A stretch of 28,943 nucleotides of DNA from IMG/VR virus record IMGVR_UViG_3300043172_000799, positions 1-28,943 of that record, one strand, 5' to 3'. A program made the position numbers and the translations under genes. The notes under the pieces are model-generated. The model saw only the letters and a list, made by a program, of their open reading frames with translations, searched no databases and was not told where the DNA came from. Source of the stretch: a virus (lineage: Duplodnaviria; Heunggongvirae; Uroviricota; Caudoviricetes). Every line of letters starts with the position of its first letter. Within the stretch, counting starts at the first letter, position 1. Below, piece after piece: positions 1 to 28,659 of this stretch.

Positions 1-9
1 CATTATTTG

Positions 10-438
10 TCAAGTACTTTTATCCAAAGTAATTTTTTCATAGCAATGTGGGCAGATTATAGTTTTTCCAACTACAATCATATCCTGTACTTCTACGATT
101 AGTCCATCCACACAAATATTGTATTGATCATCGTGATCCTCCCCCTGTACTTCTACTATTCCAATTAAACCAAATCTTGTAAATTTACTATTCATCAATG
201 CAATTACTAGTTCTATAGCATCTTGCAAATTATGTGTACCTTCAGAACCACTCCATCTAACTCCAGAGAAGTCTTTTAATATCTCTAAATCTATATATGT
301 TAAATCAGGAAATATATCTCCCCATTCAGGGTGTTCTCGGTAATCTTCTCTGAGAACAGTTTGGAGATAAGCCAGTTCACTAGCTTTTAATTCTCTTGTG
401 AATTTTAATTCCCCATAGTAGTCTATATTGTATCCCAT
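10..438 (-). CDS. hypothetical phage protein with C-terminal CPHC zinc-ribbon-like motif
   Basis: 142-aa ORF; AAGGAG Shine-Dalgarno upstream of the ATG; MGY..Y.G N-terminus of a type common in phage proteins. Confidence 0.8.
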   Translation of the reverse strand: MGYNIDYYGELKFTRELKASELAYLQTVLREDYREHPEWGDIFPDLTYIDLEILKDFSGVRWSGSEGTHNLQDAIELVIALMNSKFTRFGLIGIVEVQGEDHDDQYNICVDGLIVEVQDMIVVGKTIICPHCYEKITLDKST

Positions 439-463
439 AATTACTCCTTTCCAACTTGGCTAA

Positions 464-478
464 TGTGTGTGTGTGTGT
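464..478. repeat. (TG)7 / (CA)7 dinucleotide microsatellite
   Basis: tgtgtgtgtgtgtgt, lying just 3' of the tmRNA-like gene on the minus strand. Confidence 0.9.
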
Positions 479-482
479 AGTA

Positions 483-608
483 TGGAGATGACGGCATCGA
501 AGCCGTGTCCGAACTACATGTACAAGATTTTAATCTACAGGAACTTTCGGTGCTAGTGCATTTACGTCATTCCTAATTACTATAATCCGTCGAAACCTTT
601 ACATCCCC
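483..608 (-). ncRNA. ssrA: miniature tmRNA (ssrA-like), 126 nt
   Basis: Minus strand begins GGGGATGTAAAGGTTTCGAC and ends GGACACGGCTTCGATGCCGTCATCTCCA. Acceptor stem GGGGAUG/CAUCUCC has the G3.U wobble and discriminator A. D-loop has no stem and ends GGUUUCGAC. P2a is GGAUUAUA/UGUAGUUC. T-arm is ACGGC-UUCGAU-GCCGU (6-nt loop). No full CCA tail is encoded after the discriminator. Confidence 0.85.
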
Positions 609-613
609 TAAAA

Positions 614-1152
614 ATCAGAGGGTCTATTTTAGATTGAACCCCCTGCTAAAGCAATCCTGACATGTTTTTAAAGTGGATTTTAAGTTCCCACTACTATGGA
701 TGCCATAGCACAGACAGAACATTATTTAATGTGCTTTCCATCCTTGTTCACACATGCCAAATATTTAACGTGGATTCAATGGCTTCCAGCAAGCAAGACT
801 ATTCTTTCCTCCCCTCCAAACTTTAACGTATTTACTCAGGGTCTTATACGAGTGAGCAGAACGTGCTTTTCTTCCAAACAGTAGCAGAGGTCATCCCGTA
901 GGATCGTCACTAGAACTGCGCAGTTCATTTACAGGGTTATGGTACAACGACCTAAAGATGGTTTAATGTTCCCTGACCACCTTTCCTTAATCCACAGCCA
1001 CACTCTGGGTGCCTACTCTTAGTAGCTTCCTCTCGACTAACTGTTTCATGTCTTAAAGCAATTGGCGTGGTATTCTCGACGCCCCGTTTTACTTCAGCAC
1101 AACATATGTGAATGTGCCCCAACTATCGACCACAGTTGGCTCTCGCTCTGAT
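614..1152 (-). ncRNA. large structured non-coding RNA (~540 nt), family unassigned; size and context like ROOL/GOLLD
   Basis: No credible ORF. Ends pair (AUCAGAG 1152-1146 with CUCUGAU 620-614). More than 10 local and long-range helices, G.U pairs favouring the minus strand, and a c(UACG)g tetraloop at 893-904. Confidence 0.75.
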
Positions 1153-1178
1153 AAACAAAATACTCCTCCTTTATTAAT

Positions 1179-1184
1179 ATTATA
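1179..1184 (-). promoter_or_regulatory. candidate -10 box for the RNA cassette
   Basis: Perfect TATAAT about 27 nt upstream of the large RNA; no good -35 box at 17 nt spacing. Confidence 0.35.
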
Positions 1185-1412
1185 CTATTTCATCTCTACA
1201 ACCATATTAGGTATAGCTTCTGGTACTCTTCTTACATCAAATGTCTCTAGGTTCCCAACATCCTTTGCATAGAAGATCCCTCTCCAAAAACTCTCTGCGA
1301 ATTTTATTGACTTTAATAATTTCATTATTGTTCATTATTAAATCAATCACATCTTTTCTTTCCATTCCCCAGAGTCTCCTTCAAAAATCTCAATCATTCT
1401 TTCTTTTGTCAT
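1185..1412 (-). pseudogene. fragmented small gene(s) between the recombinase and the RNA cassette
   Basis: ATG at 1412 overlaps the recombinase stop (ATGA) and gives only MTKERMIEIFEGDSGEWKEKM*. Protein-like text continues in shifted frames (MERKDVIDLIMNNNEIIKV..., then FWRGIFYAKDVGNLETFDVRRVPEAIPNMVVEMK*). Confidence 0.35.
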
Positions 1413-2344
1413 ACTATTACCTCCAATCCTCTCAAATATTTTTCAGTCACTGTGACACTTGCATGGTGAAGTGCCTTTGACACAAGATAGATATCTTTTG
1501 TCTTACTATATAGCTTGCAAGCAAACATATGACGATAGTCATGCGGTGTATATTTATGCATGATCTCTCTATTTTTATACAAAATCCCAATAGTTCTTCT
1601 GAAGGACGTTTGTACACTATTGCCATTTAAATCTGGCAGTAATTCAGAGTTTTCTGCTATGAAAGCATCTCCTTCCACATTAACTGAATAGAACTTCCCC
1701 TTGCTCATTGAACTTAAGGTTTTACCATCATATTTAATAAACTCTTTATTAAAGAACCCAACCCTCACTGCGTATTTAGTCATAATGTGAATTGCTAGTT
1801 TCATTTTTTTATCAGCTTTGGAATCCGAATTATACATTTCTAGTATATTTTCAATCTCTTTCTCAGAAGGCAAATGCTTAATTTCTGGAACTATTTTAGT
1901 ATTCTTTATTCTAACTCCTAGGAATGGATTTCGTTCAACCCATTCATGTCTACAAAGCATAGAGTAAAATGAAGAAAGTACTGACAGTATGAGCTTTGCC
2001 TTCCCACTACTATAATTACTTAAGACAGAATATTTATACAGATCTACAGTTTTAAAGTTTACATCCAGAAGTGATTTCCCATCTAGATATGTAATGAAAC
2101 TGTTTAGATACAAACTATACATGCGTTTAGTATCTTTGGCTTTGCCCTCAAGGAAGAAATTGATGTTATCCTGTAAATCAAATTCTGACTTTTGTACTTC
2201 AGATTTAACCTGAGTTTTATACTGATCCATTTTTACAGAGAGCAATACATGCTTCAACTGCTCTTCAGATAATTCCCTGAATGACTCCGGCATAGAACTT
2301 AAAATATCTACAACTGTATTCTCTGTATTCATTATAGCTGTCAT
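1409..2344 (-). CDS. tyrosine recombinase/integrase (XerC/D-like)
   Basis: Catalytic motifs YAVRVG (R), PHDYRH (HxxR), LHHASVTVTEKY (H...Y); SAM-like domain ending NPF. Confidence 0.92.
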   Translation of the reverse strand: MTAIMNTENTVVDILSSMPESFRELSEEQLKHVLLSVKMDQYKTQVKSEVQKSEFDLQDNINFFLEGKAKDTKRMYSLYLNSFITYLDGKSLLDVNFKTVDLYKYSVLSNYSSGKAKLILSVLSSFYSMLCRHEWVERNPFLGVRIKNTKIVPEIKHLPSEKEIENILEMYNSDSKADKKMKLAIHIMTKYAVRVGFFNKEFIKYDGKTLSSMSKGKFYSVNVEGDAFIAENSELLPDLNGNSVQTSFRRTIGILYKNREIMHKYTPHDYRHMFACKLYSKTKDIYLVSKALHHASVTVTEKYLRGLEVIV

Positions 2345-8899: not shown

Positions 8900-9596
8900 T
8901 GTGTTTCTCCTTTCTGCTACCTTTACTAAGATTATTTTGCCATAGCATTGGTTGTAAGTTAGTATAGTGGAAGCATTGCTTCTGCTGTTCTGTATCAGCC
9001 AGATCAAATGACGCACATGGATTGATATGATCCATGTGCCAACCATAAAAACCATAGTTATCCCATGTCATACCATCAATCCATAGACTTTCAAGGTATT
9101 CTCCCAATTCCGATGGAGAGCATCCTATCAAATCCATTGTACAGTGATACTTTTTGGCATTCTGATTTTTTAATGCTTTGGAAACTCTACTTCTAAGACT
9201 TTCTTCCAATCTAAATAGGGGATCATTTTTTCTTTTCTCCCTACGAGCGGTTCGTATTTTATCTTTATTTCCATTCCTATAATTTTTCTGGGTTTCTTTT
9301 CTTTTTTCTGGATTTTTCTTTCTATATTCTTTTGATCTTAATATTTCCATATTTTGATTTAAGTGATATAAATCTCTATTCTTACTTGCTATTTCTTCTC
9401 TATTTTTTTCTCGGTATTCTTTTTGTCGTTCTATTTCTTTATTTCTATTTAGTAGATAATTCCCATGACTGCACACCTTACATGTTGGTTTATGTCCTGA
9501 AGAAGAACTTTTATCTTTACCAAATTCCTCCCACTCCTTAAATTCACCACACCCACTACACTCTCTGCCAGTATCATTTATCAGGTACTTCCCCAT
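8889..9596 (-). CDS. HNH-type homing endonuclease with N-terminal zinc finger
   Basis: GRECSGC...CKVC, helical linker, then WHMDHINPCASFDL...CFHYTNLQPML...NLSKG. Confidence 0.85.
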   Translation of the reverse strand: MGKYLINDTGRECSGCGEFKEWEEFGKDKSSSSGHKPTCKVCSHGNYLLNRNKEIERQKEYREKNREEIASKNRDLYHLNQNMEILRSKEYRKKNPEKRKETQKNYRNGNKDKIRTARREKRKNDPLFRLEESLRSRVSKALKNQNAKKYHCTMDLIGCSPSELGEYLESLWIDGMTWDNYGFYGWHMDHINPCASFDLADTEQQKQCFHYTNLQPMLWQNNLSKGSRKEKHIEF

Positions 9597-28243: not shown

Positions 28244-28490
28244 TCAAAAATAATTCCAATAGAAATTATTAACCGCTATATTCAAATTGAATAATCTAAA
28301 AAAGTTAAATATCCTTTTTCCGGTATTGTACTTTTTTAAAGCTTCTTTCTTACTGCTATACTCATGTTTTTTCATATAGATATCAATAGATACATTTTGA
28401 AATTCTATATATGCAGCATGTAAAGCGAGCATATTCTCTATGCTATTTTTAATATAAAAACCGTAGTAATACTTTAATGATTTTTTTCAT
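28244..28490 (-). pseudogene. small gene frameshifted in an A7 run
   Basis: AAGGAG RBS and ATG at 28490; removing one A from the A7 run gives MKKSLKYYYGFYIKNSIEN in frame with the 28244-28432 ORF. Confidence 0.55.
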
Positions 28491-28659
28491 AATTCTCCTT
28501 ATACAGAAATCCCCCTATATAATCATAGGGGAATTTTTTATTTCTTCTTTCTTAGTATCAAAATTTCTGCCTGTAGTTTTGTATTAGATTGAAATAACTG
28601 ACTGTTTCCTATTACTGCTCCAATTACATAACCTAGTGTAAAACCTAATAGAGCACCGA

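Follow-up and report, generated by a model that had tools for sequence, protein, structure and literature searches.

The window analysed here, that is, the whole stretch of 28,943 nt, makes up the first 28.9 kb of an IMG/VR virus genome of 168,384 bp that has a GC content of 34% and a CheckV value of 100%. Positions 483–608 on its minus strand hold a 126-nt RNA gene, called hereafter mini-tmRNA, which runs from G1 at 608 to the discriminator A126 at 483. It was recognized by the Rfam tmRNA model RF00023, with a match at 480–608(-) scoring 52.9 bits (E 2.5e-18) for a gathering score of 47. In the alignment to this model, 284 internal positions are replaced by 39 nt of the window RNA. The 3′ end is devoid of an encoded CCA, the bases following A126 being UAC. 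ARAGORN reported no tmRNA in the window, in the whole genome, or in the region at a relaxed threshold, and a blastn search of the window RNA against isolated phages and E. coli genomes gave no match.

When the ends of the linear record are joined, the mini-tmRNA gene is located some 1–2 kb from the Met, Gln, Leu and Trp tRNA genes of the genome. Inspection of window positions 1–1500 revealed no terminator-like site, and no promoter stood out either, so that processing from a longer transcript is likely. No SmpB gene was found in the phage genome, and the mini-tmRNA would therefore depend on the SmpB protein of the host. Its 3′ trailer, between the RNA and the ribosome binding site of the next gene (ORF 438–10), contains a (CA)n run of about 15 nt (464–478, minus strand). 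Upstream on the same strand, and only 5 nt from G1, some 540 nt have no long ORF (614–1152, minus strand); a blastn search with this RNA-like block found no counterpart beside the related RNAs of contigs L002 and L021, described below. Beyond the block, an ORF at 1409–2344(-) resembles tyrosine recombinases (phage integrases), with weak Pfam matches.

Relatives of the mini-tmRNA

Relatives were sought by pattern scans, in which the two halves of the tRNA-like domain (TLD) had to lie 25–115 nt apart, followed by a check of acceptor-stem pairing. At this check, 33 of 40 metagenome matches were dropped as chance matches in GC-rich genes, and six of the seven loci of a further scan, as well as L142, were discarded in the same way. 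Fifteen related mini-tmRNAs were collected from viral and metagenome contigs. Viral contigs provided L002, L005, L052, L054, L143 and L144, metagenomes provided L008, L014, L019, L021, L035, L043 and L044, and a MAG contig provided L053; in L003 and L004 the RNA is compact and its T loop normal. The RF00023 threshold was also passed by L004 (63.9 bits), L005 (50.8), L003 (50.4), L021 (49.5) and L035 (49.0), whereas L002 (44.9 bits) and the remaining scanned members were below it.

The closest relatives of the window RNA are L021 and L002, the three RNAs being 73–78% identical to each other. Their flanking proteins were compared, and nothing was shared between any of the loci. A scan with the conserved core as pattern retrieved L002 alone among viral contigs, and nothing among prokaryote genomes. 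Two other members, L052 and L019, are lodged inside phage tRNA arrays, a few bases away from the flanking tRNAs.

The window RNA belongs to a lineage with a 6-nt T loop, whose members extend from a 77-nt form consisting of the TLD plus a hairpin (L054), without the inner loop altogether, to forms of 105–127 nt. Longer forms of this lineage were looked for in a scan, and none was found. L143 and L144 have the same inner loop as the lineage, but normal T loops. MAFFT alignment and RNAalifold applied to all 13 members mis-registered the 5′ end and recovered the T arm alone, and pairs were counted directly instead.

The tRNA-like domain and the interior of the RNA

The acceptor stem is formed by nt 1–7 (602–608, minus strand), including the G3 of the G3-U70 alanine identity pair, and nt 119–125 (484–490, minus strand), followed by the discriminator A at 483. 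Direct counting showed that all seven pairs are formed in 13 of 13 members, with G3-U70 and the discriminator A invariant and compensatory changes at pairs 4–7. The T arm (491–506, minus strand) has a 5-bp stem (nt 103–107/114–118) and the 6-nt loop UUCGAU. All five pairs of its stem are present in the 13 members as well, compensatory changes giving four types of the first pair and three of the second. The loop is one base below the canonical 7 nt and is closed by a C-G pair, and the Rfam alignment places a one-base deletion in it; its uniformity among the relatives is partly built into the sample, since a 6-nt T loop was a search criterion. An analogue of the D arm (GG.UUCGAC) and a GGAC junction, both invariant in the alignments, flank a long P2 helix. 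Positions 483–608(-) of the window are a genuine reduced, pseudoknot-free phage tmRNA with alanine identity.

Helix P2, of about 12 bp, pairs nt 20–31 (578–589, minus strand), directly after the conserved UUCGAC, with nt 87–99 (510–522, minus strand), directly before the conserved GGAC. The helix was placed in a constrained fold, and the consensus fold contains compensatory changes. Its first five pairs are kept in all seven sequences of alignment A4, except for one G-G mismatch in L052. Between the two strands are only 58 nt, which make a helix-closed loop and a 4-bp hairpin and leave no space for pseudoknots; the 15 relatives have none either.

The helix that closes the loop, designated Px, has 7 bp and pairs nt 34–40 (569–575, minus strand) with nt 65–71 (538–544, minus strand). 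Among eight A- and B-type members, 89% of its positions are paired, compared with 64% in shuffled sequences, and none of 500 shuffles equalled the observed value. Five of six pairs show compensatory changes, and sliding the register lowers pairing to 22–44%. Px encloses a 24-nt loop (nt 41–64) that starts with GACG, ends with CGAAA and contains the resume-like codon, and G65 completes the CGAAAG. This loop motif (nt 41–65; 544–568, minus strand), which can be described as GACG, an A-rich stretch, GCA-C and, further on, CGAAAG, is common to the B-type relatives, with invariant columns at G41, A42, C43, G44, A46, C51, A52 and C60 to G65.

Three further readings were considered and rejected. A kink-turn made of the GA/AAA internal loop, and a pairing of CGAAA with a UUUCG of the D loop, were both dropped by eye, registers or covariation being unfit. 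The loop could also have been a relic of the canonical ANDENYALAA template, N-D-V-N-A-L-A being what the window gives in frame, but its local alignment with the E. coli template is not significant (p 0.7). The same alignment was marginal for L005, L053 and the mycobacteriophage DS6A RNA (p about 0.03), which is kept as a lead.

The second element, a 4-bp hairpin at nt 73–84 (525–536, minus strand), carries a UAA in its 4-nt loop. It is seen both when the sequence is folded by itself and in a consensus fold for the three closest relatives. The 18 nt around it are identical in the window, L021 and L002, so that the region is kept as sequence and shows no covariation. This invariance points to a sequence-specific RNA element rather than a mere need for two codons and a stop.

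The candidate tag frame

The original prediction was that this RNA is a tmRNA whose template encodes a tag ending in an acidic residue instead of a degron. The sequence on which it was based is exact: UAAAU (U45-A46-A47-A48-U49 at 564–560) is followed by GCA CUA GCA CCG AAA GUU CCU GUA GAU UAA. The proposed frame (530–559, minus strand) thus has nine sense codons (559–533) and a UAA (532–530), giving (A)ALAPKVPVD. Its first codon, GCA (559–557), lies in a resume-like context (557–564, minus strand) that is canonical, with U45-A46 at positions -5/-4 as in the E. coli rule. In E. coli tmRNA, the near-invariant A86 fixes the frame four nucleotides further on, and U85 is conserved too (PMC2481249). 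The predicted placement of the stop in a small hairpin loop also holds, the UAA being within the tetraloop of the 4-bp hairpin (window 536–525), and the predicted tag indeed ends with Val-Asp in place of a hydrophobic, LAA-type end. The 3′ strand of Px overlaps codons 6 and 7 (GUU CCU) and the first base of codon 8.

To estimate how often such a frame arises at random, cores were shuffled with conservation of dinucleotides. UA-NNN-GCN with a terminated frame of 5–15 codons was present in 7% of them, and in 16% if an A at -4 alone was required, and exactly nine codons were obtained in 1.6%. On one sequence, the window frame is mildly unusual, and not beyond chance.

The family was then used to evaluate the frame, counting from the GCN (or GGC) codon preceded by A at -4, in 13 non-redundant members (L021 was omitted as a near-duplicate). 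An A at -4 of GCN, or of GGC in L008, is present in all 14 members having the loop. In 4 of 13 members, which belong to four subfamilies, the stop comes after exactly nine sense codons, whereas 0.45 is expected from shuffling (p 7.5e-4); as the nine-codon test was chosen after the data had been seen, this value is suggestive. Nine codons plus the charged alanine would make ten residues, which is the commonest natural tag length (PMC11915505). An in-frame stop is found in 9 of 13 members (5.65 expected), and none falls in codons 1–4 (2.1 expected). The two other frames terminate in 5 of 12 and 4 of 12 members, frequently at codon 1 or 2. In L008, the frame closes with two stops.

Conservation of the frame among homologous mini-tmRNAs, a part of the original prediction, was found for one close relative and failed for others. 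L021 keeps the frame of the window, its nine-codon length and its Val-Asp end. In L002, a 1-nt insertion after GCA leads to an unrelated 16-codon frame, and in the frame of L002 that does end in Val-Asp, no codon starting with G follows the upstream stop. No in-frame stop exists in four of the 13 members (L005, L053, L143 and L044), and the first three, whichever frame is read between the loop and the 3′ end, contain no stop. These stop-less members are the GC-rich ones, and the rarity of stops there is due to composition.

Other features of the alignments suggest that nucleotides, rather than codons, are conserved. Indels of 1 nt occur within the frame in each subfamily, and in the B-type members GCC and CGAAAG are 10, 11, 11, 11 and 12 nt apart, which, together with the strong conservation of the loop, indicates that the loop is held as an RNA sequence. 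The differences of the window from L021 and L002 at codons 6–7 follow the base pairing of Px. Synonymous variation among homologs, which was to accompany a translated frame, is absent, as all four in-frame differences between the window and L021 are non-synonymous.

The acidic end itself is a trait of the window and L021, which both end in Val-Asp, and not of the family: in members with a stop, the predicted tags end in D, D, N, F, S, S, N, R, R and A, two of the ten being hydrophobic. If the frames of the relatives are tags, their common property would be the absence of a degron, not acidity. Taken as a whole, the tag-template reading is half supported by the family data.

Tagging, its alternatives and known systems

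As the preferred single interpretation we consider, with something short of even confidence, that the mini-tmRNA templates the non-degron tag AALAPKVPVD and rescues ribosomes without adding a degradation signal. The RNA would be cut from a longer transcript, as the neighbouring phage tRNAs are, and CCA would then be added. After charging with alanine, it would be delivered to stalled ribosomes by the SmpB and EF-Tu of the host, and the U-A at -5/-4 would place GCA (559–557) in the A site. Px and the small hairpin would be unwound, the 58-nt closed loop would have to pass along the mRNA channel, the nine codons would be read, and release would take place at the UAA (532–530). The rescued protein would end in AALAPKVPVD, and the ribosome would be recycled with its product unmarked for ClpXP-type degradation. 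Tags ending in DD let tagged proteins accumulate instead of being degraded (PMC2635970), from which it is reasonable to infer that a Val-Asp end is not a ClpXP signal either. One may speculate, as the original prediction did, that such tagging responds to mRNA cleavage by toxins or abortive-infection systems. Extended to the lineage, the proposal is that 105–127-nt pseudoknot-free phage tmRNAs, widespread and unannotated, template tags of about ten residues without a degron and so uncouple rescue from proteolysis; this broader claim is possible but rather doubtful.

The main competing explanation, which we regard as a serious if somewhat improbable one, is that the RNA is a decoy. Its tRNA-like half would bind the SmpB of the host (and AlaRS and EF-Tu), lowering host trans-translation and degron tagging during infection, while the conserved loop would be a motif for binding a protein or the ribosome, and the nine-codon frame would be untranslated. 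Several of the observations above agree with this: the 1-nt indels in each subfamily, the conservation of loop and stop hairpin as nucleotides without a codon pattern, the lack of SmpB in the phage genome, which relies on the host protein, and the inclusion in the lineage of the 77-nt TLD-plus-hairpin L054 and of members without any stop codon. The loop motif is moreover common with the RNA of DS6A, a reported inhibitor of E. coli tmRNA (PMC4131195, PMC11915505). Since the start of the loop is shared with this tag-less RNA, an A-rich/GCN motif alone cannot prove a template. A decoy does not account, however, for the nine-codon frames in four lineages (p 7.5e-4), never with early stops, nor for the added, invariant hairpin of the A type with UAA in its loop. 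It would also need only some 75–85 nt, as in L054, L108 and DS6A, whereas the window RNA keeps 40–50 extra nucleotides.

Two other explanations were given less weight. The RNA might accept the peptide on its alanine and be released as peptidyl-RNA, then hydrolysed, possibly by a phage-encoded PTH2, so that the product gains a single Ala. This would account for the function of the stop-less members, and mitochondrial tmRNAs without a tag frame are still retained alongside SmpB (PMC11915505). Each of the three sequences from which the closest mini-tmRNAs come has a PTH2 gene: in the genome of the window, outside it (PF01981, 101.8 bits; G000:C1:135921–136292, minus strand), in L021, two genes downstream of the mini-tmRNA (3–356, minus strand, 70.8 bits), and in the genome of L002 (G001:C1:105043–105405); the contig of L144 has one too. 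PTH2 is nevertheless common in large phages (80 loci), where co-occurrence may reflect modules of translation genes, and the complete genome to which L054 belongs has none. Within 10 kb of PTH2, only two tmRNA-type genes were present, one TLD-only and one full-length with an LAA tag. We know of no mechanism that releases a long peptidyl-RNA from the P site, and this one-alanine rescue seems unlikely. Far less probable still is an attachment-site relic or pseudogene, in which a captured or rearranged piece of host ssrA, without RNA function, would lie near the integrase-like gene at 1409–2344(-). tmRNA genes are frequent integration sites, and prophages are known to carry ssrA fragments (PMC9004378, PMC11915505). 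Yet the acceptor stem has both its halves, which covary among 13 members found in unrelated contexts, most relatives are located in tRNA arrays with no integrase nearby and no shared flanking genes, and the one bacterial-bin tmRNA inspected has a normal 7-nt T loop.

PTH2 was also tried as a bait, or positional partner, for tmRNA-type genes, and was abandoned: its 80 loci (1.45 Mb) gave the TLD-only RNA and the full-length tmRNA mentioned above, and one false tRNA match.

The standard one-piece tmRNA is the ssrA RNA of E. coli, 363 nt long. The window RNA resembles it by its alanine-type TLD, its UUCGAC and GGAC junctions and long P2, as well as by the U-A at -5/-4 before GCA, the nine-codon frame, and the stop in a hairpin loop (helix 5 in E. 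coli). It differs from it in having no ring of pseudoknots PK1–PK4 (58 nt in place of about 300), a 6-nt T loop, no encoded CCA and a Val-Asp end instead of Leu-Ala-Ala, in that its frame is not conserved in some relatives, and in being invisible to ARAGORN. Rescue by the E. coli RNA survives replacement of the pseudoknots and of the tag template (PMC2481249).

Earlier work has described phage tmRNAs (PMC9004378, PMC7162821) and, with DS6A, a phage form that has no tag. Full-length phage tmRNAs, such as those of L072 and of the mycobacteriophage Bxz1 group, are similar to the window RNA in being phage-encoded and beside tRNA genes. The one in L072 (10807–11174, plus strand; 368 nt, 168 bits), which has a pseudoknot region and a tag ending in Leu-Ala-Ala, is placed between a PTH2 gene (9015–9389) and a run of tRNA genes.

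The DS6A RNA (JN698994, about 28478–28560; L056:179–261, plus strand) is unannotated in the GenBank record. Its published curation lists it as TLD-only and CDS-less, and inhibition of E. coli tmRNA is reported for this type alone (PMC4131195, PMC11915505). It is phage-borne with an alanine-type TLD, like the window RNA, and carries the same 14-nt start of the loop motif (GACG-AAAA-..-GCAC, nt 41–53 of the window RNA), 12 of 14 positions being identical to L005. It has a short P2 and scores 43.2 bits, below or near the Rfam threshold. Its 83 nt, 7-nt T loop and lack of Px, of a second hairpin and of a terminated frame set it apart from the window RNA, with its 126 nt and nine codons followed by UAA. 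The TLD-only size range (about 65–85 nt) fits L054 (77 nt), L108 (82 nt) and DS6A (83 nt), and not the window RNA; similarly, the absence of a terminated frame after the A-rich/GCN site, typical of DS6A, is found in L005, L053 and L143, and not in the window RNA. DS6A, with 69% GC, shares the start of the loop with a marine and sediment phage family, despite the 34% GC of the latter.

Tag-less tmRNAs are also found in organelles, namely the mitochondria of jakobids and oomycetes and two Mallomonadaceae plastids, where the TLD is kept and SmpB acts in trans (PMC11915505). Unlike the window RNA they have no candidate frame, many are permuted, and they are organellar, not viral. Tags other than degrons have been described for Carsonella (ending in Lys) and Fermentibacterota (Ala-Ala), and for the laboratory alleles ssrA-DD and ANDH6D (PMC4131195, PMC11915505, PMC2635970, PMC2481249); according to Hudson et al., no species other than Carsonella ends its tag in a charged residue (PMC4131195). 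These RNAs, like the window RNA with its predicted tag, would dispense with the hydrophobic LAA end in rescue, but they keep the full pseudoknotted scaffold, and tagging by the laboratory alleles is demonstrated where that of the window RNA is predicted.

In the searchable literature, we found no paper with the exact term “mini-tmRNA”, nor any account of pseudoknot-free RNAs of 105–127 nt that combine this loop and candidate template with a Px helix. If its frame is used, the window RNA would be by far the smallest natural tmRNA still acting as a messenger. The four pseudoknots would then be unneeded for template loading, the ring being dispensable in nature, and phages would have split the outputs of trans-translation, keeping ribosome recycling and dropping protein destruction. 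Were the whole lineage to template tags, it would comprise the smallest natural RNA doing full trans-translation, possibly alongside the phage PTH2. If the frame is not used, the RNA would add to the decoys of the DS6A type a bigger, structured version whose loop is conserved. In either case, phage tmRNA surveys based on ARAGORN (PMC7162821, PMC9004378) miss the mini-tmRNA class; as ARAGORN does not see it and most members are under the Rfam threshold, the number of phages that interfere with ribosome rescue in their hosts is probably underestimated.

Some other RNAs met at side loci deserve mention. In L003, a 159-kb viral contig, the compact tmRNA-like RNA (272–410, plus strand; 139 nt, normal T loop) has a GCC then UAA after an A-rich stretch, which would give an Ala-Ala tag like that of Fermentibacterota. 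An unusually long tmRNA match of 446 nt with large insertions is found at L145:1501–1946(+) (G009:C18:7118–7563); its bin, labelled Gammaproteobacteria, also holds L053 and two PTH2 genes, and may contain jumbo-phage contigs. A match to the Rfam abiF RNA motif (L051:3609–3645, minus strand; 53.2 bits for a threshold of 37) borders an array of phage tRNAs that is very large. Finally, matches to the tRNA model at L002:7683–7798 and L019:554–654 (116 and 101 nt), inside phage tRNA clusters, exceed the length of ordinary tRNAs and may have introns or long variable arms.
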